Origin: Eubacteriales Family XIII. Incertae Sedis bacterium | GTDB lineage: Bacteria > Bacillota > Clostridia > Peptostreptococcales > Anaerovoracaceae | Assembly (NCBI GenBank): GCA_031269205.1 | Contig: JAISZM010000163.1 | Location: 1-47,885, forward strand | Length of the DNA stretch: 47,885 nucleotides | Reading direction: 5' to 3' | Shown here: one piece after another, positions 23,433-46,677 of the stretch | How the letters are laid out: every line of letters begins with the position of its first letter | Position numbering within the stretch: the first letter of the stretch is position 1 | Made by a program: the position numbers and the translations under genes | The notes under the pieces: model-generated | Told to the model about the DNA's origin: nothing | What the model saw: the letters and a program-made list of their open reading frames with translations, nothing else | Databases searched by the model: none

Positions 23433-23472
23433 CGGAGGAGCCGGTTCGGCAGGATCGGTTTATCCGCTCATC

Positions 23473-23501: not shown

Positions 23502-23561
23502 AGTATAGTGTATCCGGCATGGACGACGACCTGGCGGTGGAAGTCCGCTCCTCCTCGATTT

Positions 23562-23579
23562 TTCGTACAATCCGTACTA
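23562..23579 (+). promoter_or_regulatory. Copy A of the shared 18-nt element TTCGTACAATCCGTACTA, upstream of the URO-D2/corrinoid protein operon
   Basis: Identical 18-mer on the minus strand at 35727-35744, upstream of cooC/acsA. There is a partial copy at 41534-41552. All three have the same orientation relative to the downstream genes. Confidence 0.5.
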
Positions 23580-23639
23580 AAAAGTTCGACATAAATCGCT
23601 CCAAACGTCCGATTGAAAGCGCGTGGCATGGATTGTTTT

Positions 23640-23650
23640 TGTGATAAAAT
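23640..23650 (+). promoter_or_regulatory. Extended -10 promoter element TGTGATAAAAT upstream of URO-D2
   Basis: TRTGn + TAAAAT geometry. The same 11-mer recurs at 47260-47270. Confidence 0.35.
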
Positions 23651-23694
23651 CGATAACAGCCTATAGTAGTCTTTGGTGTTTAAGGAGGTGAGTT

Positions 23695-24954: not shown

Positions 24955-25105
24955 GGCGCGGTCGGTTGCGCGGCGCGCAACGGGGAGTTCCCCTCGCCGC
25001 TCTGTTATCTGTTATATGGTATAGCCAGAGAGTGTCTGTCAGGCGCGTTGAAGCGTAAGGCGTGACAGAGACAACCTTTATGAGGCAAGAAGGGAGAAGG
25101 ACAGC

Positions 25106-26558: not shown

Positions 26559-26638
26559 GGTAATTCCTCCGTTCCTTTCATGTGGTTTGCGCTGTTCCCG
26601 GGCAGTCTTTGGATACGGCGCGACTTTGGTGAACCCGC

Positions 26639-27424: not shown

Positions 27425-27520
27425 AAATAGATCCCTCCGTTCATCCTTCCTTGAACCATGCCGCGCGGCGGCGCCAACGCTTCATGAAACCTTTTATCTA
27501 TCCGTTCTACGCTTCCCACC

Positions 27521-28855: not shown

Positions 28856-28882
28856 CTTTGGCCCTCCTTCTCTCAGATAGAG

Positions 28883-29833: not shown

Positions 29834-29920
29834 GCGATTTATTCTCCTTTTTGTGTTTGCCTGCTCTTTCCGCACCCGGCGACTGAGCAGGGCAGCGGAA
29901 CAATTATCTACCGGATATCC

Positions 29921-32050: not shown

Positions 32051-32084
32051 TATCCTACCCGTTCTTCTGTCAGAGGTAATTTCC

Positions 32085-32852
32085 TCATGACTCTATGCGC
32101 TCTTTTATAATATTGACTTCTTTCGCAAAGAGGCCGTCGGATGCGAGTGGCGATCCGCCCGCCTTGTCCGCCTCGACGACGCCGCCGCTGTAGCTGATAA
32201 ACCCGAGCAGATCCTCTTGCGGTACGCGCCCTGATATAAAAGCTCTGTCCGCGTCGTCAGTGACCTTGTTGCCGACGACGCTCACCCTTCTCACGCCGAG
32301 GTCGGTCGCGAGGGCGCGTATGCGCTCGTACGTCTGTATGCTGCGCGCGCCCGGTTCGACGACGGCGATGAACCGATCGACCATGCCCGCCGTGCCTCTG
32401 CCGAGATGTTCGATGCCGGCTTCCATATCCATGACGATCACATCGTCCGATTTCAACACGAGGTGAGAGACGACCCTCTTCAACATCACGTGTTCGGGAC
32501 AGACGCAACCGCCCCCTCCTGTCTCCACCGTTCCCATTACCAGAAGTTTTACCCCGTTCTTCTCGACCGCGAACCTGTCAGGGATGTCGTCAACCCTCGG
32601 ATTGATCTTGAAAAACTTCCCGTAATTTTCCCTGTCCGCGCCCGTGCGTTCCGCGATGAGACCGGACATATCCGCTATCGGCGTAATGTCCGCGACTTCG
32701 TCCTCAGTGAGACCGAGGGCGAGGCCGAGGTTTGCGTCGGGGTCGGCGTCCACGGCGAGTACGCGCCAGCCGTCCGCGGCGTACAACCGCGCCAGCGACG
32801 CCGCGAGCGTCGTCTTGCCTACTCCTCCTTTGCCGGTGACCGCTATCTTCAT
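32085..32852 (-). CDS. cooC: CooC/AcsF-type nickel-insertion ATPase (copy 1)
   Basis: I prefer the start MKIAVTGKGGVGKTT (P-loop). CxC nickel motif GGGCVCPEH. The ORF-track start at 32936 would overlap acsA. Confidence 0.9.
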   Translation of the reverse strand: MKIAVTGKGGVGKTTLAASLARLYAADGWRVLAVDADPDANLGLALGLTEDEVADITPIADMSGLIAERTGADRENYGKFFKINPRVDDIPDRFAVEKNGVKLLVMGTVETGGGGCVCPEHVMLKRVVSHLVLKSDDVIVMDMEAGIEHLGRGTAGMVDRFIAVVEPGARSIQTYERIRALATDLGVRRVSVVGNKVTDDADRAFISGRVPQEDLLGFISYSGGVVEADKAGGSPLASDGLFAKEVNIIKERIES

Positions 32853-32904
32853 GGATCGCTTTTCCTGTCGCGCGTCGTCGCGCTTCGCCTCTCTTTTCAA
32901 ATGT

Positions 32905-34827: not shown

Positions 34828-34837
34828 AACGTTGCTC

Positions 34838-35659
34838 CTATAGTATTCGTTCCACTATCTCTTCGAACGCCTTGCGCGCCAGCGCGTCTGGCGGCAGCGT
34901 CGCGGTCGGTCTGCCGTCTGAGTCGTATTCGTACACGAGCGGATCGGACGGCACGACCCCCGCGAGCGCGAGTCCCTGCTTCGTTATCTCCTCGGCGATG
35001 CCTTTGCCCAAATCGTAGACGCGGCCGCCCGCCTCGTATGCGACGTCGTCGCCTTTCCCCGCCGCCGGCGCCTTGTTCACTATAAAATCTATGGACTGCG
35101 GCGTCAGTCCCAGCTCACGCGTCAGTTCCTGTATCCTTCCGGCGGCCTGAACTCCCCTGCGAGAGCAGTCGGACACGATGAGTATTCGGTCGACCCGCGG
35201 CAGTACGCCGCGGCTCAGATGCTCCATGCCCGCCTCGTTGTCCACAACGAGATAGCGGTAATTGTTCGCGTAGCGGGCGATATGGCTCTGCAACAGGCCG
35301 TTCACAAAGCAGTAACAGCCCTTGCCCTGCGTGCGACCCATGATGAGCAGATCGTAGTCGTCCTCCTCGGTGATGGCTGTCTGGAAACGCGAATCGAGCC
35401 ATTCCTGCTTGGACATGCCGGGCGGGATGGGGGTGTTTTCGTCCATGTCCGCGCCGTTGATCGTGTCGCGCAGTTCCGCGAGCGAGGGTTCCGCCTCGAC
35501 GCCGAGCACGTCCGCGAGGTTCGCGTTAGCGTCCGCGTCTACCGCAAGGATCGGCGTCAGCCCCTTCCGGGCGAGCCATCCTATGAGAAAACCTGAGAGG
35601 GTGGTCTTCCCGGTACCGCCTTTACCTGTCACCGCGATAATTTCCGTCATGTTTTTCAC
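34838..35659 (-). CDS. cooC: CooC/AcsF-type nickel-insertion ATPase (copy 2)
   Basis: P-loop AVTGKGGTGKTT and CxC motif GKGCYCF. The ORF-track start is a GTG at 35659. An ATG three codons later (35650) is the alternative. There is no SD. Confidence 0.85.
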   Translation of the reverse strand: MKNMTEIIAVTGKGGTGKTTLSGFLIGWLARKGLTPILAVDADANANLADVLGVEAEPSLAELRDTINGADMDENTPIPPGMSKQEWLDSRFQTAITEEDDYDLLIMGRTQGKGCYCFVNGLLQSHIARYANNYRYLVVDNEAGMEHLSRGVLPRVDRILIVSDCSRRGVQAAGRIQELTRELGLTPQSIDFIVNKAPAAGKGDDVAYEAGGRVYDLGKGIAEEITKQGLALAGVVPSDPLVYEYDSDGRPTATLPPDALARKAFEEIVERIL

Positions 35660-35795: not shown

Positions 35796-35987
35796 TTATC
35801 GCGCGTCCGCGTCTATCGTTATCACGTTCTTCACGAGGTCGATGTTCGTGATGCCTCCGCGGACGGTTACGTCGTTGCCGATGATGTCCGTAAGGACGAT
35901 CTGATCGCCGTTCACCCTGACGCCCGTCACGTACTCCGCGAGCGCCGCGTTCGGGTTTTTCACTTCATAGACTGTTGACAGACACAT
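35796..35987 (-). CDS. cooT: CooT-family small nickel-binding CODH maturation protein
   Basis: 63 aa starting Met-Cys (MCLSTVYEV...), with CooT-like size and beta-rich pattern. Located in the CODH/cooC context. Confidence 0.65.
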   Translation of the reverse strand: MCLSTVYEVKNPNAALAEYVTGVRVNGDQIVLTDIIGNDVTVRGGITNIDLVKNVITIDADAR

Positions 35988-36056
35988 AGATTTTGCCTCA
36001 TTTCCGCTGCGCCCCCATCCGTTTGCGGCGGGACGGGGATCCTGGGTTATCCTCGA

Positions 36057-36356
36057 TTACCGCTCTTCGAGCAGCTTGATGGCATGTTCGATTTGATCCG
36101 CGGCGGCCTCGATGTTTTTGACCCCGCCCTCTATCAGGCTGGTTATCCTGTCATCGTTGGGACGCTCTATCGCGCCGATCAGACCGTGAAGCTCACGCGC
36201 GTGTTCCCTGTTGTGATCCTTCATGTAGGTCAGGACGGCCTTGAGTCTGGGCTTGTCCATGGCGGACGCGTCGCCGGGTTTCGAGTCCTCGAGTCCATGG
36301 CTGTGCGCGCTTCCCTTCCCGCCTCCATGCGAGTGGTCGTGTTTGCCGTCGTGCAT
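36057..36356 (-). CDS. Small His-rich protein (HDGKHDHSHGGGKGSAHSHG head plus helical body), putative metal (Ni) handling protein
   Basis: 99 aa. The start lies 1 nt after the pucR stop. 7 His in the first 21 residues, plus a ...YMKDHNREHARELH... helix. I cannot assign a characterised family. Confidence 0.55.
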   Translation of the reverse strand: MHDGKHDHSHGGGKGSAHSHGLEDSKPGDASAMDKPRLKAVLTYMKDHNREHARELHGLIGAIERPNDDRITSLIEGGVKNIEAAADQIEHAIKLLEER

Positions 36357-36357
36357 G

Positions 36358-37902
36358 TTATTTTCCCTCCTGTTCGATGAGTTCGAGCGACAGCAACAGA
36401 TACCATCTGTCGCTGAGCTTGTTGAAGTCGAGTCCCGTGATGGCCTGTATGCGCTCGATGCGATATATGAACGTGCTGCGCGCGACGAAGATATCCTTCG
36501 CGGCTTTGACCGAGTGCAGGTCGTTTTTCAGAAAGACGGACAAGGTGTGGTAAAACTCGGTTTGGTGCTCTTCGTCATAGGCTTTGAGCTGCAGCAGTTC
36601 GGGGGCGCAGACCATGGACACGGGCAACTTCTCCGTGCATATCTCAAGGAGATACTGCCTCACGACATCGCGGAATCTGCACAGGTGGTCGTACTTCTTC
36701 ACCTTTGACCTGAGCCTGTTCGCTATGCCGGCCTGCTCGTAATAGAGCAGTATCTGCTCAAAGCCCGTGAATACGTCGCTTTTGCCCGCCGTCAGGTTGT
36801 TGTCCCGCAGGAAATCAGCCATGGCGACGTCTATGGGTACGTCGCCGCCGCCGCGCGTCGTGAGGTTGAACACGGCGATGATGCTGTCGTCGTGTTCAAA
36901 CACGCATTGCTCGTCAAACAGATCCGCTATGCGCGTCGTCATGAAGCCGAGCGTACGGTCGTTCTTTTCGTGCAGCGTGGTGAATACCCGGTATATCACG
37001 AACTCGTCGTCGGCTTTCCAGCCGAAGCTCGCCATCTGTTCCTTGATGTATTCGTGGCTGTTTATCTCTCCCGAAAGAATGTTCGCCATAAAGCCCGTCA
37101 TGTTGAGCGCCACCGACGAGCCGCCCGTGACGAGTCCCAGAGCGAGCCGGATGTAATCCGCCAGGTGTTCGAGCAGGGCGCTTTCATATGGTTCTATCTC
37201 GTGGGTGAGTTCAAGCAGCATGAGACGGTACTTGAACTTTCCGCGCCTGAACAGGTTGACGCTTATCCCCAGCATACCGTTCGCGCGCATGTACATCACT
37301 TTGCCTGATACCGTGCCCAACACCGTCTTGTCCTTTTCCGACTTCATCAGGAAAGGAAGTTTTTCGTCGTTCAGCAGAGGCATGATCGCGGGTTCGTTCG
37401 CATAGTCCGACGCCACAGCCGCTACCTTGAAATTGATGTCGTGGAGTATGAGCGGGTTGCCGAAGATACGTCCCCCCACATCAACCAGCGTTTGTATATC
37501 CGAATTTGATGTGAGAACGCGATGAAGTTCGGCGTCCCAATAGTCGTATTTCGTGAAGATGTCCTGAATGGAGCCGTGTATTTTGGATATGGACGACTTT
37601 CCTCTGATCAGAGATACCGACTCGAATATCCTGGCGAGCGGAACCACCGCTTCGGTGTCTTTCGTGATCGCGACGGCGGGGATGGTTTCGCCGTCCATCC
37701 GCGAGCCGTACTCGCGCGCGAGCGTCTCGGCCGTATGTTTCGCGTCTTTATCGACGATCCAGACGCGTCCGGCTCCGGGCTGCATACCCGCGCGCAGAAA
37801 CATGACGTTCTCAAGCGAGAGTCTGTATGAAACCTCGCCCGGCGTTTGGATGTCGTACATTTCGCCCAACTCTTTATACAGTATCCCCACGCTGATCTTC
37901 AT
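36358..37902 (-). CDS. PucR-family transcriptional regulator (C-terminal HTH_30)
   Basis: 514 aa. C-terminus ...VKAAKDIFVARSTFIYRIERIQAITGLDF... is the PucR HTH. It is the first gene of the minus-strand unit. Confidence 0.8.
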   Translation of the reverse strand: MKISVGILYKELGEMYDIQTPGEVSYRLSLENVMFLRAGMQPGAGRVWIVDKDAKHTAETLAREYGSRMDGETIPAVAITKDTEAVVPLARIFESVSLIRGKSSISKIHGSIQDIFTKYDYWDAELHRVLTSNSDIQTLVDVGGRIFGNPLILHDINFKVAAVASDYANEPAIMPLLNDEKLPFLMKSEKDKTVLGTVSGKVMYMRANGMLGISVNLFRRGKFKYRLMLLELTHEIEPYESALLEHLADYIRLALGLVTGGSSVALNMTGFMANILSGEINSHEYIKEQMASFGWKADDEFVIYRVFTTLHEKNDRTLGFMTTRIADLFDEQCVFEHDDSIIAVFNLTTRGGGDVPIDVAMADFLRDNNLTAGKSDVFTGFEQILLYYEQAGIANRLRSKVKKYDHLCRFRDVVRQYLLEICTEKLPVSMVCAPELLQLKAYDEEHQTEFYHTLSVFLKNDLHSVKAAKDIFVARSTFIYRIERIQAITGLDFNKLSDRWYLLLSLELIEQEGK

Positions 37903-37909
37903 GTAATAT

Positions 37910-37918
37910 AGTATATCA
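37910..37918 (-). promoter_or_regulatory. Extended -10 (TGaTATACT) 7 nt upstream of the pucR-family ATG
   Basis: Read on the minus strand as cgTGaTATACTatattacATG. No SD is present. Confidence 0.35.
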
Positions 37919-38015
37919 CGAGTGGCGACCTCTAAAAACGATATGTTTGGTAGAATTGTGAGGTAGAATGTGGTTCACAGTCACAGTTCACAAAACGGAA
38001 TTTCCGAAACGAAGA

Positions 38016-38040
38016 CCGGCAGAGTAGCCGGGGGGTTTTT
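38016..38040 (+). terminator. Terminator-like hairpin CCGGC-AGAGTA-GCCGG followed by GGGGTTTTT, inside the leader of the activator gene
   Basis: 5-bp GC stem plus T5, oriented on the plus strand. It lies downstream of a TGgTAGAAT extended -10 (37948-37956). Confidence 0.3.
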
Positions 38041-38157
38041 GAGGTTCTCCGGAACCGCGCCTCGCGTGTTATACTATTGAACGGAACGGGAAACGGGTTT
38101 CGTGGCACTGCTCTGCAAGCTGAACCGCGCGTTGAATTGACGGAGTGAAGAGGATAG

Positions 38158-39699
38158 GTGAAGCGGAAAATGCGTGAATCGGAAAGAGAACGCAAGCTGG
38201 TATTCAAGACGGCCGACGGGGCTGACTTTGCGATAACCGCGCGCGTGGGAACGAACTTGCTCGCGGCCGCGCGCGGCGCGGGGGTAGCCATAGACGCGCC
38301 CTGCGGCGGCGCCGGCGCCTGCGGCAAGTGCCGCGTGAAGCTGTCGTCGGGGGAAGTGGAGTCCATATGCGGCAGACACATCTCCGACGACGATTTTGCC
38401 GCGGGCTACCGACTCGCGTGTGAGAGCGCCATTCTGTCGGACGCCGAAATATCAGTACCCGAGTCGGCGCTCGCGTGGCAATCGCGCATACGGGTGGACG
38501 AAACAGACGGCTCAGGCGCCAGCGCGACGACGGAGCGCGTCAAAAGGGCGTTCGCGGCCGGCGGATTTCATCGTGACACGGACGTGTGGTGTGTCCGGGC
38601 AAAGCTCGGCGCGCCGAGCCTTGACGACGCGCAAGCCGACAGGGAGAGACTGCTCTCCGCGATAGATGCCGATGACATTTCGCTGTACGCCCTGCGCAAA
38701 CTGCCGCAGGCATTGAGGGAAAACGATTTTTCGATCTACTGCCTGGTTCGCGGCGCGGCCGGGCAATCCTCTGACGGCGGCGCGCCCGGATCGAGGACAG
38801 TTATCGACGTGAGCGCGCGGCCGATACGGCTCGTCGCCGTCGCCGTGGACATAGGCACGACGACGGTGTCGGCGCTGCTGGTTGATCTCGCGACGGGGGA
38901 GATACTGTCCGCCGGCAGCGCGGGAAACGGACAGATACGCTACGGCGCCGACGTGATAAACAGGCTCATAGAAGGCGCTAAGCCCGGGGGCGCTGAGAGA
39001 TTGCGCGAGGCCATCGCGGATGATTGCGTCGCGCCGCTCATACGGGATATCTGCGCGGCCGCGCGTGTCAACGGCGGAGACAAAGACGCTTGCGCTATAG
39101 AACCGGCCGAGGTAGCGCGTGTTTCGATCGCGGGCAATACGACTATGATGCACCTGTTGCTCGGCGTCTTCGGCGACAATATTAGGATGGAGCCGTATGT
39201 TCCCGCTTTCTTCGCGCTCGGGACGCTCCGGGGCGCGGATATCGGTTTCGGCGTCAACCCTGACGCGGGAGTGACCGTATGTCCTTCCGTCGGAAGTTAC
39301 GTCGGCGGCGACATCACGGCGGGAGTCCTATCGTCAGGAATATACAAGAGGAAGGAAAACGCGCTGTTCATAGACCTGGGTACGAACGGTGAGATCGTGC
39401 TAGCCGGCGACGGCTTCCTCATGTCGTGCGCCTGTTCCGCGGGGCCGGCGTTTGAGGGCGGGAATATGAGCTGCGGCATGAGAGCCACGGACGGCGCCGT
39501 CGATGCCGTCGCCATAGACGAGGAAAACATGAAGCCGTCGCTTTCGGTCGTCGGGGATATTCCCCCGGTCGGCATATGCGGTTCCGGACTCATCGACGTC
39601 GTCAGCGAGCTTTTCCGCTGTGGGATCATCGACGCGCGCGGTAAGTTTATCCGCTCCGGCAAGCTCGTGAAGGAAGACGGTTGGGGAGGCAAATATTAG
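38158..39699 (+). CDS. RACo-type reductive activator of corrinoid proteins (2Fe-2S ferredoxin domain plus ASKHA ATPase), N-terminal 513 codons ending at an in-frame TAG
   Basis: GTG start after GAGGA. Plant-type ferredoxin motif CGGAGACGKCRV. ASKHA phosphate motifs VAVDIGTTTV and FIDLGTNGE. Confidence 0.8.
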   Translation: MKRKMRESERERKLVFKTADGADFAITARVGTNLLAAARGAGVAIDAPCGGAGACGKCRVKLSSGEVESICGRHISDDDFAAGYRLACESAILSDAEISVPESALAWQSRIRVDETDGSGASATTERVKRAFAAGGFHRDTDVWCVRAKLGAPSLDDAQADRERLLSAIDADDISLYALRKLPQALRENDFSIYCLVRGAAGQSSDGGAPGSRTVIDVSARPIRLVAVAVDIGTTTVSALLVDLATGEILSAGSAGNGQIRYGADVINRLIEGAKPGGAERLREAIADDCVAPLIRDICAAARVNGGDKDACAIEPAEVARVSIAGNTTMMHLLLGVFGDNIRMEPYVPAFFALGTLRGADIGFGVNPDAGVTVCPSVGSYVGGDITAGVLSSGIYKRKENALFIDLGTNGEIVLAGDGFLMSCACSAGPAFEGGNMSCGMRATDGAVDAVAIDEENMKPSLSVVGDIPPVGICGSGLIDVVSELFRCGIIDARGKFIRSGKLVKEDGWGGKY

Positions 39700-39702
39700 A
39701 TC

Positions 39703-40155
39703 GTGGCGGCGGATCCGATGGATGGCGTGGGCCGGGAAGTCGTCGTCACCGAGGCCGACATCGACAACTTCATCAGGGCCAAAGGCTCGGTGTTTTCGGC
39801 CATACGAGTCATGCTTGAACTCGCCGGGATGGACGTGGACGATCTGGGGCGCGTCTATATCGCCGGAGGCATCGGCGGCGCCATAGACAAGGCGAGCGCC
39901 GTGCGCATCGGTATGCTGCCCGCTCTGCCCGAAGAGCGGTATGACTATATCGGCAACACCTCACTGATGGGGGCGTACGCCGCGCTGCTGTCGGCGGAGG
40001 CGCGGGCGGAGCTTTCCGAAATACAAGGAAGCATGACGTACTTGGAACTATCCGCGCATCCGGGCTACATGGACGAATTCATCGCCGCGTGCTTCCTGCC
40101 GCATACTGACGCGTCGCTGTTCGACGGCGGCGGGAAGGTTCGGGAGCGACAATGA
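39703..40155 (+). CDS. C-terminal 150 codons of the same RACo-type activator (same reading frame, separated only by TAG-ATC)
   Basis: VVVTEADIDNFIRAKGSVFSAI...RVYIAGGIGGAID...IGNTSLMGA is the second ASKHA lobe. 38158 and 39703 are in the same frame. Confidence 0.8.
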   Translation: MAADPMDGVGREVVVTEADIDNFIRAKGSVFSAIRVMLELAGMDVDDLGRVYIAGGIGGAIDKASAVRIGMLPALPEERYDYIGNTSLMGAYAALLSAEARAELSEIQGSMTYLELSAHPGYMDEFIAACFLPHTDASLFDGGGKVRERQ

Positions 40156-40191
40156 AGTGACGCGAAGGTGAGGGCGTGTGAGGTTGAAGCT

Positions 40192-40845
40192 ATGGCGATG
40201 AAGAGAGATAGTACGACACAGCCCGAGTACGGGTTCGGGCGTATCACCGACAAACCTCTGGAGCACTACTCCAGGGTGTTCGCGTCGCTCGATCCCTTGG
40301 ATATCGCGGAACGTACGCGCGTGCCGTACGATGCGGAGCGTCGCGAGTTCACGATCACCCTCATGGGCGTGAGGTACGCGGTCGGCTGGCCCGGCGCGGA
40401 GATCGGGATCGACGACCCTTACGCACGCATCCTCATGCTCAGATATCTCGAAGAGGGTCGATACATAGAACCCACGGGCAGATACGTCGCTTACCATGAA
40501 CTGCCGTGGGGTGATGTCTATGTTTCGAACTTTCGGGGGCGCGTCATCAGGCGCTTCCTCAGTGAGTTCGGGCGTGACCTCGACGCCTTAAAAAAAATTA
40601 TAGAAGGGGCGTCCGGCCTCGGCGCCGAGCCGGAGGAGAAATGCGATCTGGGGTACAGGTTCGATTTCATGAACGGGTTGCCCATGAAGATACTCGTATG
40701 GGAGGGCGACGACGAGTTCCCGGCTTCAGCGCAGATGCTTTACGACAAAGCCGTGGCGTTCGCCTATACGGCGGAGGACATCGCGGTCGCGGGCGACATA
40801 TTGATAAGCCGTCTGAAAGATATGCGCGAAAATGCGATGATGTGA
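40192..40845 (+). CDS. DUF3786-family protein
   Basis: The pattern ...F.I.LMGV.Y.V.WP...ILMLRYLEEG...Y.ELPWG..Y...F..R......F...LVWEGDDEFPASAQMLYD matches my memory of DUF3786. I prefer the ATG at 40192 (GAGGT SD). The ORF track starts at the GTG at 40168. Confidence 0.65.
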   Translation: MAMKRDSTTQPEYGFGRITDKPLEHYSRVFASLDPLDIAERTRVPYDAERREFTITLMGVRYAVGWPGAEIGIDDPYARILMLRYLEEGRYIEPTGRYVAYHELPWGDVYVSNFRGRVIRRFLSEFGRDLDALKKIIEGASGLGAEPEEKCDLGYRFDFMNGLPMKILVWEGDDEFPASAQMLYDKAVAFAYTAEDIAVAGDILISRLKDMRENAMM

Positions 40846-40875
40846 TAAAATACAAAAGGTTGATGAAAGTCGCAT

Positions 40876-41532
40876 GTGGATGGAACGGATTCTAAGAGAA
40901 TGACTACGGATATCATCATGAAGGGATTTCTTGATCTTTCGGAAACTGAGGTTATCGAAGAAGTCAAGGCGCTGGTGGAAACCGGAATCCCTACGGAAGA
41001 GATACTTCGTAAATGCCAGGACGGTATTACGGCCGTTGGCGACGCCTTCGGTGAGGGGAGGATGTTTGTTTCGGATCTCATGGTCTCGGCCGCCATCTTC
41101 AAGAAGGCCGTCGGTCTCATCATGCCCGACGCGCGTATGCTTGCGGGCGACAAGGGCAAAGTCGTCATCGGAACAGTCAAGGAGGACGTACACAACATCG
41201 GAAAGGACCTCACGTCCAACCTGCTCAGGTTTGCCGGATACGAGGTCATAGACATCGGCGTGGACTGCTCTCCGGAGGAATTTGTCAAGGCCGTCAGGAA
41301 GAGCGGCGCGAAGATAGTCGCGATGTCGTGTCTTCTTACCTCGAGCTATCCCTTCATCATAAAGACGATAGAGGCTCTGAAAGCGGCGGGACTCAGAAGA
41401 CGCGTGAAGATCATTGTCGGCGGCGCGCCGCTCGACGAGAAAGCCGCCGATTACTGCGGCGCCGACGCTTACGGAGCCAACGCGCGGTCGGCGGTCTTGT
41501 TTGCAAAAAATATCTATAAGCGATCCCCGTAA
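40876..41532 (+). CDS. Second corrinoid (B12-binding) protein
   Basis: DxHxxG motif (KEDVHNIGKD), ...MSCLLTSS... and GGAPL. The start is uncertain: GTG 40876, ATG 40900 or ATG 40918. Confidence 0.85.
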   Translation: MDGTDSKRMTTDIIMKGFLDLSETEVIEEVKALVETGIPTEEILRKCQDGITAVGDAFGEGRMFVSDLMVSAAIFKKAVGLIMPDARMLAGDKGKVVIGTVKEDVHNIGKDLTSNLLRFAGYEVIDIGVDCSPEEFVKAVRKSGAKIVAMSCLLTSSYPFIIKTIEALKAAGLRRRVKIIVGGAPLDEKAADYCGADAYGANARSAVLFAKNIYKRSP

Positions 41533-41533
41533 A

Positions 41534-41552
41534 TCCCTCGTACATTTTGTAT
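41534..41552 (+). promoter_or_regulatory. Copy C (degenerate) of the shared element: TCCCTCGTACATTTTGTAT, followed by a TAAAAT -10 candidate (41575-41580)
   Basis: Shares AATCCCT-CGTACA with copy B. It lies upstream of the orphan SBP gene in the same orientation. Confidence 0.35.
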
Positions 41553-41742
41553 GAAGTTTTTTCACTCTTTCGGATAAAATGTTCGGTAGTAATATCTTCG
41601 CGTGCGAGTGTACGATGTGCATATGAATCATTGGTCGCTCCTTTGCGGAGATGCCGGCGATATATCCTTACCGGAACTCCTTGCGATCCATGGTCGATTG
41701 TCTGTTGAGAGGAAGAAGAAGGGAAAAGAAGGAGGATAGAAC

Positions 41743-42999
41743 ATGAAGAGGAAGAAGACGCTGCTTTTAGTGCTCTGCGTCGCTTTGACGCTATTATGGG
41801 GCATGATGGCGACGGCGTGCAGCCAGTCGCAGGACACGCCCGCGGAAGAGGCACCCGCGGAAGAGACACCTGCGGAAGAGACGCCCGCTGAGGAGACCCC
41901 GCCCGCCGAGGAAACGGACACGGCGGACTCGGGCACGAAGAATATAGGCATATATGCCGACGCGAACGGCGTCTACTACGATCAGCTGGCCAATGTCTTT
42001 ATAGCCGCTGGCGAGCAGGATCCCGAATGCGACTGGAAGGTCGAGTACAAGCTTGGACAGGGTACCGCTGAGGATCAGATATCGGCCGTGGAGAACTTCA
42101 TAACGGCCGGCTATGACGCGATGATCATCATCCAGAACAATCCGGACACGACGGCGGAGTGCCTCGAAAAAGCGGCCGCGGCGGGTATCCCGTACTTTGG
42201 CGCGTGCCACTATTTCGGACAGCTCGACAACGCCAGCCTGTCGGCCGGGTCGACCAATTACAACTTTATCGAAGCCGGAAAGATGGCGGGTGAGGACGCT
42301 CTGGCTCACGGCGTGACCAAGGTCGTCATGATCGAGGGCGTGCTCGGACAGGGTTCCGCTTCGGATCAGTCGCTCGGCTTCGTACAAGCCTACGAGGATG
42401 CCGGCAAGAGCCTCGGCGAAAAGGAGGACGGCAGCAAGTGGACGGCTGAGGAGATAGCCACCGAAAAACCCGGCGCGGATCTGATCAAGGGCAGCCCTGA
42501 CCTGGTGATCGTGCAGTGGGCGTCCGGCGAATGGGTCTCTGAGCCTTCACAGGCGGCCATGGCGAACGCCATTACGGCGCTCGGTCAGGATGGCTGGGAC
42601 GGCGCTTACGTACACAACAACGCCATGATGGAAGGCGCGATGATGGCTGTGTCTGACGCGGGGCTTTCGACCGATGAGTATTGGCTCGGCAGCTGCAACG
42701 GACGCGACATCAGCTGGCAGTGGGTCAAGGACAAGAAGATCACGATGGACGTCAACCAGCCCGCCAACATGGAAGGCTGCCTGCTCTATCAAATGGTCAA
42801 GGCGTATTTCAAGGGCGAGGACTACCGGAAGCACGTGCATCCGTACCTGACCCCGTACAATCAGGAGAATATCGCCGATCTCGAAGCGTCACTCGTCCCC
42901 TGCGACAACGCCGATGATTTCATGGCCGGCATGAACGCGAATACGTTTGTGTGGGATATCAACGACCCCAAGTTCAAGGATATCGAGGGCAACTACTGA
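41743..42999 (+). CDS. Orphan lipoprotein sugar-binding protein (periplasmic binding protein type I, RbsB-like) with no adjacent permease or ATPase
   Basis: Lipobox MATAC, a (T/A)PAEE x4-5 linker, then ...IGIYADANG...ENFITAGYDAMIIIQN.... AAGGAGG SD. Confidence 0.75.
   Translation: MKRKKTLLLVLCVALTLLWGMMATACSQSQDTPAEEAPAEETPAEETPAEETPPAEETDTADSGTKNIGIYADANGVYYDQLANVFIAAGEQDPECDWKVEYKLGQGTAEDQISAVENFITAGYDAMIIIQNNPDTTAECLEKAAAAGIPYFGACHYFGQLDNASLSAGSTNYNFIEAGKMAGEDALAHGVTKVVMIEGVLGQGSASDQSLGFVQAYEDAGKSLGEKEDGSKWTAEEIATEKPGADLIKGSPDLVIVQWASGEWVSEPSQAAMANAITALGQDGWDGAYVHNNAMMEGAMMAVSDAGLSTDEYWLGSCNGRDISWQWVKDKKITMDVNQPANMEGCLLYQMVKAYFKGEDYRKHVHPYLTPYNQENIADLEASLVPCDNADDFMAGMNANTFVWDINDPKFKDIEGNY
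41836..41913 (+). repeat. 15-bp tandem repeat (acgcccgcggaagag-like, 4-5 units) encoding the PAEE(T/A) linker of the SBP
   Basis: Units at 41836, 41851, 41866, 41881 and 41896, read directly from the sequence. Confidence 0.9.
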
Positions 43000-43067
43000 C
43001 CGTAACTATCTGAGTCGTCATGTGCCGCGCAATATTTAGTTGGCGGAGCAATTAACAGCATCAGCAG

Positions 43068-43097
43068 AGGAGGGCCGCGCGTACGCGTGGCCTTCCT
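43068..43097 (+). terminator. Strong GC-rich hairpin (AGGAGGGCCGCGCG / CGCGTGGCCTTCCT) after the orphan SBP gene
   Basis: About 13-14 bp stem including two G-U pairs. No clean U-tract. Confidence 0.45.
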
Positions 43098-43151
43098 CCT
43101 GTTCGGTGTGTCGCGCCGCGTTGCGGTCGCTATAATATGGTAGTATAGATC

Positions 43152-43934
43152 GTGTGGAATAATGAGGTTGGATTGAAGGATCAGGGCGACCCGCCGGGGA
43201 ATGGACAAGGGTTCGGTAGAGGAATGACGCTGTACGCTGGGGAAACAGAAAAAGAAAAAATATGTGTACTCGCGTGTAGGACGCTCAGTCCGGAACTCGA
43301 GCTTGTGATGAAGGCGGCCGAGTCGACGCTGCCCGTGTACTATGTCGATTCGGGGAAGCACCTATGCTCCGACCGGTTGCGCGAGTCGATACAGGAGGGG
43401 ATCGACGTGATGCCGTCCGAGTACGGTACGGTGCTGCTGCTGTTCGGGTTTTGCGGCAACGCGATGGTCGGCGTCAAATCCGGCGCGCGCCAGCTCGTAC
43501 TGCCGAAGTCGGCCGACTGCATCCCCATATTTCTAGGCTCGCAGGAGGAGCGCAACAGATACGGGACTCGACGGTACTTTTTTACCGAGGGCTATCTCAG
43601 AGCCGAAGCCAATCCTGCGGCCGACTACGCGCATCTCGTCGAAAAGTACGGAGAGGAAAACGCGCGCAAGGTCATGCGGGAGATGCTCAATCACTACGAG
43701 AACCTGTCTGTCGTGGATACGGGAGCCTTCGACGTCGCCTCTGTCGAGTCCGCGATAGCGGGGCTCTCCGCGATAACGGAGATACCCGTGGACGTGCTGC
43801 CCGGCGACCTCCGGTTGATACGTATGCTGGTGACCGGCGACTGGCCGCCCGGCGAATTCTTCGTGTTCGATCCCGGTACGGAAATAACGCTCGGCGACTC
43901 GCTCAGTTTTCAGTCGATTTCGCAGGTGGGGTGA
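43152..43934 (+). CDS. DUF1638-family protein
   Basis: ...ICVLACRTLSPELE...LLLFGFCGNAMVGV...LVLPKSADCIPIFLGS...YFFTEGYL...DWPPGEFFVFDPG matches my memory of DUF1638. The start is uncertain (GTG 43152, TTG 43173 or ATG 43224). A TATAAT lies at about 43131. Confidence 0.65.
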   Translation: MWNNEVGLKDQGDPPGNGQGFGRGMTLYAGETEKEKICVLACRTLSPELELVMKAAESTLPVYYVDSGKHLCSDRLRESIQEGIDVMPSEYGTVLLLFGFCGNAMVGVKSGARQLVLPKSADCIPIFLGSQEERNRYGTRRYFFTEGYLRAEANPAADYAHLVEKYGEENARKVMREMLNHYENLSVVDTGAFDVASVESAIAGLSAITEIPVDVLPGDLRLIRMLVTGDWPPGEFFVFDPGTEITLGDSLSFQSISQVG

Positions 43935-44015
43935 AAGCGCTGCGGCAGAGAGGGTTTCGTCGAGGCTTCCCGTCGCTTCTGCCGTGTACACGTCCGCCGT
44001 CGTTCCCTCGATCGC

Positions 44016-44044
44016 TTGAAATGCGGATGGTTCAAATATATAAT
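44016..44044 (+). promoter_or_regulatory. Sigma-70-like promoter TTGAAA-17 nt-TATAAT upstream of metY
   Basis: Both hexamers and the spacing were read directly from the sequence. Confidence 0.5.
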
Positions 44045-44101
44045 TATGTCCTATATAGCAATTCATAGAGGCGATGGGACGCGGTAAAAGTGGAGGAGAT
44101 A

Positions 44102-45478
44102 ATGGGGTACAAAGCGTTTGGCGACAGGGATTTGGGTTTCACCACGCGGCAGCTGCACGCGGGCTACAACCCCGGGCAGCACAATATGGCGAAGGCCGTG
44201 CCGATTTACCAGAACGCGGCGTTTCAGTTCAACGATTTCGATCGTTGCGGCCGACTTTTCGCGTATGAGGAGGACGGGTATTCCTACGGGCGTTATTCGA
44301 ATCCGACGACAGAGGCGCTCGAGCGTCGCGTGGAGTCGCTTGAAGGCTGCGACACCGCTGGCGCTATTCGCGGGCAGGGCGACGGTGCGGACAGCTCGTC
44401 GTACGACGACTTCGTTCAGCCGGGCTACTCGGGACCCGTCGTCGCCATGGCCTCGGGTATGGCGGCGGTCTCCGGAACCATGCTGAATCTCGCGGCGGCC
44501 GGCGACAATATAGTCGCCGCGCCAACCCTCTACGGCGGGGACATGACGCTGTTGACAAAGATACTGCCCCAGTACGGTATACAGGGCAAGTTCTCGGAGG
44601 ATCCGACGGATCCGGCGTCCTTTGAGGCGATGATAGACGAGGGGACAAAGGCCGTCTTTGTCGAGTGCCTGAGCAATCCCAACTCGTATATCGTGGATTT
44701 TGAGTCCATTGCCGAGATCGCGCACGCGCACGGTGTACCGCTCGTCGTGGACAACACCTTCGCGACGCCGTATCTCTTTCGCCCGTTCGAGCACGGAGCC
44801 GACATAGTTATCTACTCGGCGACGAAATATCTGGCGGGGCACGGGATATTGGTCGGCGGTCTCGCCGTCGAAAAAGGCGGCTTCGACTGGCTCTCGGGCG
44901 GACGTTACCCCTGGTTCGAGAAGTTTTACGAAGAGAATAAAATTTCAATTTCGGAGGACAAACTCCGCAACTACCTTTTCTCGATGCGCCTTCGCATGAC
45001 CTACCTCTGCGACCTCGGTGCGTACATGAGTCCGCAGACCGCGTTCTACATCCTGCAGGGGATGGAAACGCTGTCGCTGCGCATGGAGCGGCACGTCGAA
45101 AACGCACTTAAGGTCGCTCGATTCCTCGAAGCGCACCTGAACGTGAAGTCGGTGTCATATCCCGGATTGCCGACCGATCCCGGTCACGCACTCGCGAAAA
45201 AATACTTCCCGAGGGGAGCGGGCGCCATAGTCTCCTTCCGTGTCAGCGGCGGGATAGAGGCGGCGAAAAGGGTGATTTCGCGTTGCGAACTCTTCGACTT
45301 CATGGTGAATGTCGGCGACGTGAAATCGCTGATAGTCCACCCCGCGACATCGACGCACTTCGGACAGTCCGATGAGCGCAAGCTCGCCGCAGGCGTGTAT
45401 GAAGATACGATTCGTCTATCCGTCGGCATCGAGGACGCCGAGGATCTGATAGACGACCTCGCGCACGCGCTGGATTGA
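44102..45478 (+). CDS. metY: O-acetylhomoserine sulfhydrylase / aminocarboxypropyltransferase (Cys/Met PLP family) with an insertion of about 27-29 aa
   Basis: TRQLHAG, PIYQN, YGRYSNPT, ASGMAA, NTFATPY and SATKYLAGHG (PLP lysine). The ATG at 44102 sits 5 nt after GGAGG. Confidence 0.9.
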   Translation: MGYKAFGDRDLGFTTRQLHAGYNPGQHNMAKAVPIYQNAAFQFNDFDRCGRLFAYEEDGYSYGRYSNPTTEALERRVESLEGCDTAGAIRGQGDGADSSSYDDFVQPGYSGPVVAMASGMAAVSGTMLNLAAAGDNIVAAPTLYGGDMTLLTKILPQYGIQGKFSEDPTDPASFEAMIDEGTKAVFVECLSNPNSYIVDFESIAEIAHAHGVPLVVDNTFATPYLFRPFEHGADIVIYSATKYLAGHGILVGGLAVEKGGFDWLSGGRYPWFEKFYEENKISISEDKLRNYLFSMRLRMTYLCDLGAYMSPQTAFYILQGMETLSLRMERHVENALKVARFLEAHLNVKSVSYPGLPTDPGHALAKKYFPRGAGAIVSFRVSGGIEAAKRVISRCELFDFMVNVGDVKSLIVHPATSTHFGQSDERKLAAGVYEDTIRLSVGIEDAEDLIDDLAHALD

Positions 45479-45480
45479 GC

Positions 45481-46677
45481 ATGGATGTGGCGGACAACGG
45501 ATTTGATTTTGACAGGATCGTTGAAAGGCGGAGAACCGACTCTCTGAAATACGACGGCGCCTCCTTGCAGGGGAAGCCCGAGGGGCTGCTTCCTCTGTGG
45601 GTCGCCGATATGGATTTCAAGACGGCCGACCCCGTCGCGGCCGCGCTCATCCGCCTCGCGGATCACGGCATATTCGGATACCCCGCCCCGGGAGCTTCCT
45701 ATTACGATTCGGTTCGCGCGTGGTGGCGCGAACGGCACGGTTACGAGTTCGACGCGCGCGCTGTGGTGGCTCTGTCCGGCGTCGTGTTCGCGCTCGCTCA
45801 GGCAGTACGCGCTTTTACGGAACCGGGCGACGCCATACTCATACAGCGGCCCGTCTACTACCCGTTTACGGACGTCATAGAGAATAACGGGCGCAAGCTC
45901 GTGAACTCCCCGCTGGTTCTTGGCGAGGACGGACGTTACCGAGTCGACTTTGATGATTTTGAGAGGAAGCTCTCGGAGAGCAGGGCAAAATTGTTCATCC
46001 TGTGCAGCCCCCACAATCCCGTAGGTCGAGTGTGGACGATGGACGAACTCGAGCGTATGGGAGATATCTGTCTCGCCTATGACTGCCTCGTCGTTTCCGA
46101 CGAAATTCACGCGGATTTCGTGTACCAAAAGTCGCCCGCTTCTCGCCGACATACGGTGTTCTCCACCATAAAGGAAAGCTTTCGCGGAAACAGCGTCGTC
46201 TGCACGTCGCCGAGCAAATCGTTTAACCTCGCGGGCCTGCAGATATCGAACATCATCATAGAAGACCCCGCCCTGTGGCGCCGTTACCGCAAGGAACTAA
46301 ACGCATCAGGCTACAGCCAGCCGAACATCATGGGATTCGCGGCCTGCCGCGCCGCGTACGATGAGGGCGGGCCGTGGTTCGATGAACTCATGACATACCT
46401 TTCGGGCAACCTCGACCTGCTGCGTTCGCGACTGAGCGTCCTGCCCGGCGTCCGTCTCATCGAACCCGAAGGCACCTATCTTCCGTGGCTCGATTTCCGC
46501 GGCGCTGGGCTGAATCATGATGAAGTGAACCGGCTTCTCATAGACAAAGCCGGGGTCTGGCTCGACGAGGGAACGATGTTCGGACCCGAAGGCGTCGGCT
46601 TCCAGCGCGTCAACATCGCCTGCCCGTGCGCAATTCTCGCGGACGCCCTTGACCGCATAGAAGCGGCTATGATATAA
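45481..46677 (+). CDS. PatB/MalY-type PLP-dependent C-S lyase (cystathionine beta-lyase-like aminotransferase class I/II)
   Basis: FDFDRIVERRRTDSLKYD...LPLWVADMDF, SPHNPVGRVW and SPSKSFNLAG (PLP lysine). The ORF track starts at the TTG at 45475. Confidence 0.85.
   Translation: MDVADNGFDFDRIVERRRTDSLKYDGASLQGKPEGLLPLWVADMDFKTADPVAAALIRLADHGIFGYPAPGASYYDSVRAWWRERHGYEFDARAVVALSGVVFALAQAVRAFTEPGDAILIQRPVYYPFTDVIENNGRKLVNSPLVLGEDGRYRVDFDDFERKLSESRAKLFILCSPHNPVGRVWTMDELERMGDICLAYDCLVVSDEIHADFVYQKSPASRRHTVFSTIKESFRGNSVVCTSPSKSFNLAGLQISNIIIEDPALWRRYRKELNASGYSQPNIMGFAACRAAYDEGGPWFDELMTYLSGNLDLLRSRLSVLPGVRLIEPEGTYLPWLDFRGAGLNHDEVNRLLIDKAGVWLDEGTMFGPEGVGFQRVNIACPCAILADALDRIEAAMI

Follow-up and report, generated by a model that had tools for sequence, protein, structure and literature searches.

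Within the window, by which we mean the whole 47,885-nucleotide stretch of DNA analysed, positions 38158-43934 hold five open reading frames on the same strand, each with a strong Pfam match in a profile scan, and their products are those named by an earlier, sequence-only reading of this DNA: a RACo-type activator, a DUF3786 protein, a corrinoid protein, a substrate-binding lipoprotein (SBP) and a DUF1638 protein. The first gene (38158-40155, plus strand) encodes a RACo/RamA-type ATP-dependent reductive activator of corrinoid proteins, in whose joined translation a [2Fe-2S] ferredoxin domain (Fer2, E = 1.5e-12), a linker (RACo_linker, 6e-9), a middle domain (Raco_middle, 1e-43) and an ASKHA ATPase domain (RACo_C_ter, 4e-93) follow each other from N to C terminus, the frame being broken by one TAG. 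The DUF3786 gene (40168-40845, plus strand; Pfam 2.5e-46; likely start ATG 40192, giving 217 aa) lies 12-36 nt behind it and is followed, after 30 nt, by the gene for a small His-on corrinoid (cobamide) methyl-carrier protein with a DVHNIG motif (40876-41532, plus strand; Pfam B12-binding_2 and B12-binding); the close spacing claimed for these three genes is thus real. The closest solved structures to the carrier are 1Y80, the MttC chain 7XCN_M, 4JGI and the B12 domain of MetH, and it scores below the cut-offs of the NCBIfam MtbC, MtgC, MtaC and MetH models. A CUT2-family (Peripla_BP_4) SBP gene (41743-42999, plus strand; Pfam 2.9e-26) and the DUF1638 gene (43152-43934, plus strand; Pfam 1.1e-35; likely start ATG 43224, giving 236 aa) complete the module. 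The SBP begins with ..LLWGMMATAC/SQ and a PAEE-rich linker, and the lipobox claimed for it holds as a lipoprotein-like signal judged by eye only. As had also been stated, the Pfam scan finds no permease, ATPase or recognisable MT-I or MT-II gene inside 38158-43934.

Upstream, on the minus strand, lies an acs operon (26639-35659; CooC, CODH, CooC, AcsB, AcsD, AcsC and AcsE by Pfam, with NCBIfam CODH_ACS_meth at 485 bits), a neighbourhood common to the related loci L001-L004. At its end is a second pterin-binding methyltransferase gene (25755-26756, minus strand; Pfam Pterin_bind), which scores 319 bits against NCBIfam NF005719, above the 259-bit cut-off. A URO-D/MtaA-family methyltransferase gene (23695-24954) and the gene for a first corrinoid protein (25106-25735), 38% identical to that of the module, occupy 23695-25735 on the plus strand (Pfam, NCBIfam), and a second URO-D/MtaA-family gene (17375-18526, plus strand; Pfam URO-D 6.9e-22), below the cut-off of NCBIfam mtaA_cmuA, heads the genes of a RhaS-type ABC transporter. 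The methyltransferases thought to be missing thus have candidates in the same window, 12-20 kb upstream of the module (17375, 23695, 25755) and next to the acs operon. In the relative L166, orthologues of the 23695 URO-D protein (86% identity), the 25106 corrinoid protein (81%), the module corrinoid protein (64.5%) and the SBP (76%) are all adjacent, and we read the first two as putative functional partners of the last two. Given this synteny in one relative and their proximity, the upstream URO-D and pterin-binding genes are candidates for the MT-I and MT-II of the module corrinoid protein, the 25755 product being the one that could serve the small corrinoid proteins as MT-II (methyl-corrinoid:THF).

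The gene order RACo > DUF3786 > corrinoid protein > DUF1638 is found in L001/L006 and L172, and the five-gene order with the SBP gene in the window, L002 and L165; as the L165 copy is not beside acs genes, conservation of the unit does not depend on that neighbourhood. Of the 75 genome loci whose upstream sequence is long enough, 61 have RACo directly upstream of DUF3786, a pair that is usually part of a CODH/ACS (acs) operon, and the surroundings of DUF3786 include acs genes in 50 of 80 loci but a corrinoid protein in only 3 and DUF1638 in 2. For DUF1638, the 41 metagenome loci that span 5 kb or more include 21, only about half, in which a RACo, corrinoid-protein, URO-D or pterin-binding gene is a neighbour; in 10, RACo adjoins DUF1638 directly on the same strand, stop and start often overlapping. 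The association of both families with corrinoid genes, which had been suggested before, is therefore borne out and is strong. L003 has the order DUF1638 > RACo > RACo > DUF3786 > acs, with URO-D, corrinoid-protein and pterin-binding genes alongside, which makes one activator per DUF, and L086 has URO-D > corrinoid protein > pterin-binding > DUF1638, which puts DUF1638 in the slot of an activating enzyme.

The SBP gene occupies the same position in L002 and L165 (80-81% identity) but is missing from L001/L006 and L172, in which the corrinoid-protein gene is directly followed by that for DUF1638 (1-nt overlap or 51-nt gap); with three relatives carrying it and three lacking it, it is an optional insertion between these two genes. 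It may then be asked whether the SBP is an unrelated passenger of a sugar/polyol uptake regulon, with no functional link to its neighbours. Besides the absences, this would fit the gene's own strong ribosome-binding site and flanking gaps (210 nt and 152-224 nt), the homologues at 54-61% identity that belong to typical ATPase-permease-SBP operons alongside genes for polyol/inositol-type enzymes, and the 66%-identical paralogue in L170, a lone orphan amid unrelated genes. We nevertheless regard it as unlikely, if worth serious consideration: all four contexts of the clade of at least 76% identity adjoin corrinoid genes, in L002, L165 and the window at one shared position, and in L166 in another arrangement, where the SBP lies beside two corrinoid proteins, the URO-D methyltransferase gene and a GFO/IDH/MocA dehydrogenase. 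The L166 grouping, together with the distant homologues in polyol/inositol-type catabolic clusters, lends partial support to the link between methyl-corrinoid chemistry and carbohydrates that had been proposed, and a methylated-carbohydrate substrate would be possible for the module, since relatives of its SBP sit in such clusters. The suggestion that the SBP docks on the permeases at 20038-22120 fares worse, as this transporter has its own RhaS-like SBP, to which the module SBP is unrelated beyond the fold (E = 0.05), and the window's permeases are only 24-28% identical to those adjoining homologues of the module SBP elsewhere. The protein shares the Peripla_BP_4 fold of the CUT2 binders (YtfQ, RbsB, XylF, inositol/polyol), with weak similarity to YtfQ and related solved SBPs; unlike them, it is flanked by corrinoid genes instead of a permease and ATPase, and it receives no equivalog assignment.

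Promoter-like and hairpin signals of their own had been ascribed to the SBP and DUF1638 genes, but when 37800-44200 was scanned with sigma-70 and terminator consensus patterns, neither gene proved to be preceded by a promoter-like site. The scanned stretch holds 2 promoter-like sites where chance would give 2.9, and its 8 hairpins (4.7 ± 2.1 expected) do not clearly exceed chance; a bare TATAAT at 43133-43138 has no -35 element, and metY is preceded by the one strong promoter-like site (11/12, 44016-44044). A PucR-type transcription regulator (36358-37902, minus strand; Pfam HTH_30 and GGDEF_2) is divergent from the activator gene, in the same position in L001, L002, L005 and L006 and also nearby in L172, and probably regulates the module, the acs operon or both.

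Directly downstream of the module lie an O-acetylhomoserine sulfhydrylase gene (metY, 44090-45478) and the gene for a PatB-family C-S lyase (patB, 45475-46677), and with these the corrinoid protein, DUF1638 and RACo could supply the B12 carrier and reactivation functions of a cobalamin-dependent methionine synthase divided into separate proteins. The precedent comes from Phaeobacter inhibens, where a B12-binding gene (PGA1_c13350) is followed by DUF1638 (PGA1_c13340), and where DUF1638 and the Fer2+DUF4445 RamA-like protein (PGA1_c15200), which share a phylogenetic profile, are both needed for methionine synthesis by a three-part MetH (PMC5764234). This genetic evidence tied the pair and the activator to corrinoid reactivation (Price 2018, PMC5764234), so the earlier statement that DUF1638 has no assigned function is out of date; in Ruegeria pomeroyi, the RamA-like activator and DUF1638 are induced together with MtgBCD (PMC12478193). 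By eye, moreover, a homocysteine-methyltransferase-like ORF adjoins DUF1638 in L163. For the window we still find a methionine synthase improbable: none of its 37 main ORFs has a homocysteine-binding (S-methyl_trans) domain, metY has its own strong promoter-like site, and the metY/patB neighbourhood is not conserved, the site being taken by an opposite-strand enoyl-CoA hydratase gene in L001, L165 and L172 and by unrelated genes in L002. The module thus shares with P. inhibens and R. pomeroyi the B12-binding protein > DUF1638 pair and the Fer2+DUF4445 activator (PMC5764234, PMC12478193), but it belongs to an anaerobic Clostridium with a Wood-Ljungdahl cluster rather than an aerobic alphaproteobacterium, has the activator in the same operon, DUF3786 present and an SBP inside the pair, and its window lacks MttB/MtgB-type as well as homocysteine-binding genes.

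The sequence-only reading had also offered DUF3786 and/or DUF1638 as the missing catalytic parts, that is, as a new MT-I or MT-II in a self-contained corrinoid system whose SBP delivers a sugar-like substrate. Room for this is left by the lack of a recognisable methyltransferase gene in the module and by the AF2 models of the two proteins (pLDDT 93.5 for DUF3786 and 92 for DUF1638), neither with a structural homologue: searches of the PDB gave no match for DUF1638 and neither a fold nor a sequence match for DUF3786. DUF1638 has invariant H46, C77, D98 and C99 and a near-invariant C18, and conservation and residue positions in the predicted secondary structure point to a probable metal/redox site. 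Its invariant His and Cys could in principle form a Zn site, such as that used by MtaA, MetE and MetH-type methyltransferases. A catalytic role is nonetheless highly improbable. DUF3786 has no conserved Cys or His and is overwhelmingly a gene of acs operons, placed behind RACo and away from small corrinoid proteins and SBPs; in L086 and L003, DUF1638 shares an operon with genes of both the MT-I-like and the MT-II-like kind; P. inhibens, which has all three catalytic modules of MetH, needs DUF1638 all the same (PMC5764234); and three relatives do without the SBP.

The activator was correctly recognised as a RACo, but an in-frame amber TAG in its ASKHA domain (39697-39699, plus strand), seen on translation and alignment to relatives, went unnoticed. 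The Pfam ASKHA-domain match (residues 400-656) continues straight across it, and the 150 codons 3' of it carry an IAGGIGG motif, which we take, from ASKHA folds, to have an ATPase role. Compared with intact homologues of 660-762 aa in L001, L002 and L165 (63-77% identity), the part after the TAG is 74-77% identical and the N-terminal part 63-71%, so the sequence beyond the stop has not decayed. The codon aligns to a variable position, Y/Y/M/F (TAC in L165 and L003, ATG in L001, TTT in L002), and is a single base change from TAC; the activator of this genome may be inactive, split or mis-assembled. That the TAG encodes pyrrolysine, used in methylamine methyltransferases, or is read through by programme in a recoded activator is barely credible: the codon sits in a corrinoid-methyltransferase context and the sequence behind it is fully conserved in frame, but the site varies in the intact homologues, which never have TAG at it, a single base separates the codon from the TAC of the closest relatives, 9 of the window's 37 ORFs end in TAG, which makes it an ordinary stop here, and Pfam scans find no pyl or MttB-type genes in the window. 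In domain order (Fer2, linker, middle, ASKHA) the protein matches RACo of Carboxydothermus hydrogenoformans, acsV, O-demethylase activating enzymes and RamA of methanogens, and like RACo/acsV it accompanies an acs operon, the A. woodii acs cluster containing acsV plus two hypothetical ORFs (PMC3315566). Unlike RACo/acsV, its gene is broken by the TAG and heads an operon with a small corrinoid protein, SBP and DUF1638, rather than lying inside the acs operon.

Taken together, the earlier observations are partly confirmed and their interpretation partly supported. Our preferred reading, to which we give a probability of roughly 60%, is that a larger supercluster for methyl transfer and the Wood-Ljungdahl pathway (~17.4-43.9 kb) has its activation and carrier module in this region, composed of two joined conserved gene pairs, RACo > DUF3786 and corrinoid protein > DUF1638, and one insertion, the DUFs being accessory and not the missing MT-I/MT-II. 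As in three- or four-component O-demethylase and methylotrophic systems (MT-I, corrinoid protein, MT-II, activating enzyme), the window has a corrinoid protein, an activator and URO-D/MtaA-family and pterin-binding methyltransferase candidates, and a compact version, with URO-D, corrinoid-protein and pterin-binding genes adjoining DUF1638-RACo, is seen in L003. In contrast to those systems, the window scatters its components across ~26 kb, with the acs operon and RhaS-type ABC transporter genes lying among them, contains two SBPs as well as two corrinoid proteins, and reaches no NCBIfam equivalog cut-off.

On the supercluster reading, the host would be an uncultured acetogen-like Clostridium, kin to termite-gut "Family XIII" MAGs. 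Its RACo would use the [2Fe-2S] domain and ATP, as established for the family, to re-reduce inactive Co(II) corrinoid proteins to Co(I), corrinoid reduction by activating enzymes being ATP-dependent (PMC6739815); the RACo-DUF3786 pair probably acts chiefly on the neighbouring AcsCD corrinoid iron-sulfur protein, and the small corrinoid proteins are probably clients too. DUF3786 would be a non-catalytic-looking companion of this step, possibly connected to folate. In the second pair, the His-on corrinoid protein would shuttle methyl groups from the upstream URO-D-type methyltransferases (17375, 23695) to the pterin-binding methyltransferase at 25755 and so into the acs pathway, while DUF1638 would be a reactivation-linked accessory protein, its Cys3-His-Asp constellation probably being a metal or redox site that helps the activator or assists in loading the corrinoid protein. 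The SBP gene was inserted inside this pair in one sublineage, and its product probably binds a polyol- or sugar-like compound outside the cell for an ABC importer whose genes lie elsewhere. As conserved companions of the reactivator, DUF3786 and DUF1638 look, from the genomic evidence, like accessory factors of corrinoid activation.

The five same-strand genes that the sequence-only reading described at 38158–43934 are borne out by the ORF listing and the Pfam scans; that description was largely right, but it missed an in-frame TAG in the activator gene and overstated the private regulatory signals. Where it had credited the SBP and DUF1638 genes with promoters and hairpins of their own, a promoter and terminator consensus scan finds nothing above chance, and the only strong promoter-like site, an 11/12 sigma-70-like match at 44016–44044, lies 5' of metY. 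Rfam searches detected no cobalamin, SAM or other riboswitch in the whole window or in 37800–44200, and no SAM or T-box leader before metY.

According to the gene map, the module lies at the far end of a methyl-transfer and Wood–Ljungdahl block of roughly 26 kb. Pfam and NCBIfam scans identify a rhamnose-type catabolic set (11904–16949; class II aldolase, AraC regulator, rhamnulokinase and RhaA), a URO-D/MtaA-family methyltransferase at 17375, the ATPase, two permeases and RhaS-like SBP of an ABC transporter (18502–23432), a second URO-D-family gene at 23695 and a first corrinoid protein at 25106; on the opposite strand, 25755–35659 encodes a pterin-binding methyltransferase, AcsE, AcsC, AcsD, AcsB, CooC, CODH and another CooC. 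A PucR-type regulator gene (36358–37902) is divergent from the activator gene, and metY, a PatB-family C–S lyase gene and rplS lie downstream of DUF1638. The two URO-D/MtaA genes and the first corrinoid protein are interleaved with the rhamnose-type locus and the RhaS-like transporter across 11904–25735, a gene content that suggests a methylated deoxy-sugar or similar compound as the substrate of a demethylation. Between CooC and PucR, the reverse strand at 35796–36356 holds a CooT-like small ORF (MCLSTVYEV...) and a His-rich protein of 99 aa (MHDGKHDHSHGGGKGSAHSHG...), the latter standing where L001 and L002, two of the nearest relatives of the unit, have the DUF8180 gene; both are probably nickel-handling accessories of CODH/ACS. 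The acs operon itself ends in two tandem pterin-binding methyltransferase genes (25755–27424, reverse strand), one an AcsE equivalog (485 bits) and the other a more generic methyl-THF:corrinoid methyltransferase, which exceeds the cut-off of NF005719 and, in its longest ORF, shares about 118 nt with acsE. This generic protein is a likely MT-II, the methyltransferase that would unload the small corrinoid proteins.

The activator (38158–40155, forward strand) is of the RACo type, with Pfam matches to Fer2, RACo_linker, Raco_middle and RACo_C_ter (best E 4e-93). Fer2 covers residues 19–91 (E 1.5e-12), and the translation contains the four-Cys [2Fe-2S] ligand pattern C..CGGAGACGKC...LAC; PF17650, PF17651 and PF14574 (linker, middle and C-terminal ASKHA) all exceed their gathering cut-offs, and the protein carries the motifs DIGTTT, DLGTNGE and IAGGIGG. 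Passages in PMC6739815 and PMC5764234, the latter citing Ferguson 2009, describe RACo, the activating enzymes of O-demethylases and RamA as using ATP and an Fe–S cluster to reduce the Co(II) of client corrinoid proteins to Co(I). The frame is broken by a TAG at 39697–39699, through which the Pfam ASKHA match continues; the homologues in L001, L002 and L165 have intact frames. In an alignment with intact homologues of 660, 675, 762 and 640 aa, the column is variable, with TAC (Tyr) in L165 and L003, ATG in L001 and TTT in L002, and the TAG of the window is therefore one base away from the TAC of its closest relatives. The 150 codons 3' of the TAG, which include IAGGIGG, are 74–77% identical to the relatives, against 63–71% for the 5' part. 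The simplest readings are that a nonsense mutation arose recently, that strains differ at this base or the assembly is in error, or that a split is tolerated. With a GGAGG 13 nt 5' of a GTG at 39703, just after the TAG, an activator made in two pieces is conceivable, and a naturally split RamA-like protein is mentioned by Price et al. (PMC5764234). Pyrrolysine decoding is very unlikely given the mixture of codons at this variable position; TAG is the stop of 9 of the 37 window ORFs, and no pyl genes are found in the window.

The nearest homologues of DUF3786, DUF1638 and the SBP (57–81% identity) belong to metagenomes and to MAGs that carry the label Clostridiales Family XIII, the isolate names of the MAGs suggesting a termite-gut origin. 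In L001 and L006, acs, CooT, DUF8180 and PucR run in one direction and RACo, DUF3786, the corrinoid protein and DUF1638 diverge from them, with no SBP and with a 1-nt overlap between the last two genes; L172 has the same four genes in the same order, likewise without the SBP and with a 51-nt gap. The neighbourhood of L002 is window-like, its SBP standing between the corrinoid protein and DUF1638, and L165 has the same five genes as the window, not beside acs. The core unit is one of four genes, and the SBP is an insertion in one sublineage. The arrangement differs again in two loci from Gracilibacteraceae (L003 and L004), where URO-D, a corrinoid protein and a pterin-binding gene on one strand are followed on the other by DUF1638, RACo, RACo, DUF3786, CooC, CODH, CooC, AcsB, AcsD, AcsC and AcsE. 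The two RACo genes in tandem (encoding 597 and 640 aa; L003 5540–10630, also in L004) stand between DUF1638 and DUF3786 at the head of the acs operon, and by position it looks as if each DUF were paired with its own activator.

The DUF3786 gene (40168–40845, forward strand; database start ATG 40192, 217 aa) matches PF12654 at 2.5e-46, scoring 157.9 bits against a gathering cut-off of 27. The window protein has the conserved motifs LPWG..Y, GR..R, W.GDDEFP..Q and AED; P67, L86, P105, W106, G107, Y110, R117, R121, G127, D173, E175, F176, P177, Q181 and E195 are invariant, and the alignment contains no conserved Cys or His. Nearly all of the 2960 cluster representatives of the family (E <= 0.001) are stand-alone proteins of about 200 aa. 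Rare fusions exist (P0348, P0394), one with an ACT domain and one joining a LacI-type regulator (HTH and Peripla_BP_3) to two copies of DUF3786; either gene calling has produced artefacts here, or the fusions may point to the binding of a ligand. AF2 gives a confident model (pLDDT 93.5). Foldseek returned no significant fold match in the PDB for the models of either DUF (best matches E 0.02–0.06, TM <= 0.35), profile searches with the two alignments gave no sequence match there, and hhalign shows the two families to be unrelated to each other. A full-text literature search found no functional paper on DUF3786.

Scanning one genome per species and annotating the neighbourhoods by phmmer with the window proteins as queries, we obtained 80 loci; among the 75 whose upstream sequence spans 1.5 kb or more, 61 have RACo immediately 5' on the same strand, as does the window. 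Genes of the acs operon are near DUF3786 in 50 of the 80 loci, a small corrinoid protein in only 3 and DUF1638 in 2. In Blautia, Fusicatenibacter and other Lachnospiraceae the genes typically run CODH-CooC-AcsB-AcsD-AcsC-AcsE-RACo-DUF3786, and in Treponema primitia and its relatives RACo-DUF3786 precedes CODH and the genes that follow it. The acs cluster of Acetobacterium woodii, with acsV and two hypothetical ORFs (PMC3315566), of which Orf1 may be DUF3786, fits this pattern. Of the catalytic or accessory roles that the sequence-only reading offered for the DUFs, the catalytic one is probably wrong, considering that DUF3786 resides mostly in acs loci behind RACo and so seldom near a corrinoid protein. 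A further neighbour, found 3' on the same strand in 29 of the 80 loci (L020, L039–L042, L044, L045, L047, L048, L050–L055, L057, L060–L064, L068, L069, L073, L074, L077 and L081–L083), several of which have neither RACo nor acs genes, encodes an ECF S component; two representatives score above the threshold of TIGR04518, a model of the folate family, and this neighbourhood hints at a link between DUF3786 and folate. Our conclusion is that DUF3786 acts as an accessory at the junction between RACo, AcsE and CFeSP (the AcsCD corrinoid iron–sulfur protein), possibly folate-related, and not the methyltransferase of a separate system.

DUF1638 (43152–43934, forward strand; likely start ATG 43224, 236 aa) matches PF07796 at 1.1e-35, with 123.3 bits against a 27-bit gathering cut-off. 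H46, C77 (in FGFCGN), D98 and C99 are invariant in the alignment and C18 nearly so; in the confident AF2 model (pLDDT 92), the conserved Cys, His and Asp residues come after strands 12–18, 38–41, 67–73 and 90–94. Cofactor sites of alpha/beta folds usually lie at strand ends of this kind, and the position of the residues just past the strands thus makes a metal or redox site possible. A resemblance to Asp/Glu racemases in Foldseek is weak and not significant.

Of 80 metagenome loci with DUF1638, 41 span at least 5 kb, and 21 of these have RACo, a corrinoid protein, URO-D or a pterin-binding gene as a neighbour; RACo is directly beside DUF1638 on the same strand in 10 metagenome loci, the stop codon of one gene often overlapping the start of the next. 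Together with the RACo genes 5' of DUF3786, these counts uphold the proposed association of the two DUFs with corrinoid genes. One locus (L086) has the order URO-D, corrinoid protein, pterin-binding protein, DUF1638, and O-demethylase operons usually carry the activating enzyme in the slot that DUF1638 holds there. [quoted passage not shown] In Ruegeria pomeroyi, RamA and DUF1638 are induced along with the MtgBCD glycine-betaine system (PMC12478193). The P. inhibens-like combination of a RamA-like activator and a B12-binding protein with DUF1638 occurs in the window, L001, L002, L165 and L172; PF02574, the homocysteine-binding module of a split MetH, is absent from the 37 main ORFs of the window. 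Beyond DUF1638, metY (O-acetylhomoserine sulfhydrylase) and the PatB-family lyase lie, with the promoter-like site before them, within 44016–46677, an adjacency that recalls the methionine link of DUF1638 and is not conserved in the relatives.

The small corrinoid protein of the module (40876–41532, forward strand; PF02607 and PF02310) has the cap, the Rossmann-type domain and the DxHxxG motif, here DVHNIG. Its nearest solved structures are 1Y80, the MttC chain 7XCN_M, 4JGI and the B12 domains of MetH, and it falls below every substrate-specific NCBIfam cut-off (MtbC 138 against 350 bits, MtgC 130 against 370, MtaC 80 against 420, MetH 114 against 1011); its identity to the corrinoid protein at 25106 is 38%. 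His-on corrinoid proteins alternate between Co(I) and CH3-Co(III), carrying methyl groups from MT-I, which loads them, to MT-II. Neither methyltransferase is encoded inside the module; the candidates in the window are at 17375, 23695 and 25755, and in L166 the orthologous set is adjacent.

The SBP (41743–42999, forward strand) is a Peripla_BP_4 protein of the CUT2 type (PF13407, 93 bits), weakly similar to YtfQ and other solved sugar and polyol binders. Read by eye from the translation, its N-terminus has a lipobox-like ATAC followed by a PAEE-rich linker; at 41830–41920 this linker forms a short acidic tandem repeat (PAEEAPAEETPAEETPAEETPPAEET), and the RhaS-like SBP has a similar Pro/Glu-rich linker. 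The SBP was correctly described as lacking a cognate permease and ATPase, none being adjacent. Its suggested docking on the permeases at 20038–22120 finds no support, since the upstream transporter has an RhaS-like SBP of its own to which the module SBP is not paralogous (E 0.05), and the permeases beside SBP homologues elsewhere are only 24–28% identical to those of the window and not orthologues. Four such homologues (L167, L168, L169 and L171; 54–61% identity) belong to ATPase-permease-SBP operons that also encode several AP_endonuc_2 proteins together with GFO/IDH/MocA, Zn-ADH, PfkB, mannitol dehydrogenase and FBP-aldolase, by annotation an inositol/polyol-like catabolic signature. A paralogue with 66% identity (L170, 7001–8209) stands alone, as an orphan flanked by Mur-ligase and purine-biosynthesis genes, and orphans of this family seem common in these termite-gut Clostridia. 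In the clade with at least 76% identity (window, L002, L165 and L166), all four members adjoin corrinoid genes. The order in L166 is a corrinoid protein (81% identical to that at 25106), another (64.5% to that of the module), URO-D (86% to 23695), SBP (76%) and GFO/IDH/MocA, and these side-by-side orthologues tie the corrinoid protein and SBP of the module to the upstream URO-D methyltransferase. The link between methyl-corrinoid chemistry and carbohydrates that the sequence-only reading drew thereby gains real but indirect support.

Set upon the gene content, synteny and conservation established here, a working scheme can be sketched. RACo would serve AcsCD, the two small corrinoid proteins, or all of these; the URO-D proteins would load methyl groups, and the pterin-binding protein at 25755 would unload them to THF for AcsE. 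DUF3786 would assist at the RACo/CFeSP/folate junction and DUF1638, through a putative Cys/His site, in activating or loading the small corrinoid protein, and the SBP may deliver a compound resembling a polyol or sugar, possibly O-methylated, to an importer whose genes lie elsewhere. We give a chance of roughly 20% to the module being part of an undescribed demethylation pathway for methylated carbohydrates. In its boldest and rather doubtful form, the SBP clade, the corrinoid protein of the module and the URO-D protein at 23695 would make up an uptake-coupled corrinoid O-demethylase for O-methylated cyclitols and sugars from wood, passing the methyl group straight into the adjacent Wood–Ljungdahl machinery, with DUF1638 and DUF3786 as unrecognised, obligatory corrinoid-activation factors of new folds. 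Candidate substrates would be pinitol-type methyl-inositols, methyl-rhamnose and 4-O-methyl-glucuronate; the literature searched yielded no corrinoid methyltransferase for methyl ethers of aliphatic sugars or cyclitols, and no paper linking such enzymes to pinitol or methylated sugars.

Parts of this picture have precedents: the RACo-DUF3786 pair in acs clusters is already present, unremarked, in many sequenced genomes, and the association of DUF1638 with RamA-like activators is already published. New here are the fusion of both pairs in a single operon, the SBP insertion with its link to URO-D methyltransferases, and the association of DUF3786 with FolT-type components. DUF3786 and DUF1638 are widespread and tied tightly to the enzymes that sustain B12-dependent methyl transfer and acetyl-CoA synthesis, and knowledge of their functions would supply a missing piece in the biochemistry behind acetogenesis, methylotrophy and B12-dependent methionine synthesis; an operon containing both, with one activator and one client protein, offers a handy system for reconstitution. 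That a polyol- or sugar-type SBP recurs alongside genes for corrinoid methyltransferases in bacteria of the termite gut suggests methylated plant carbohydrates as a possible, unrecognised source of methyl groups for gut acetogenesis.
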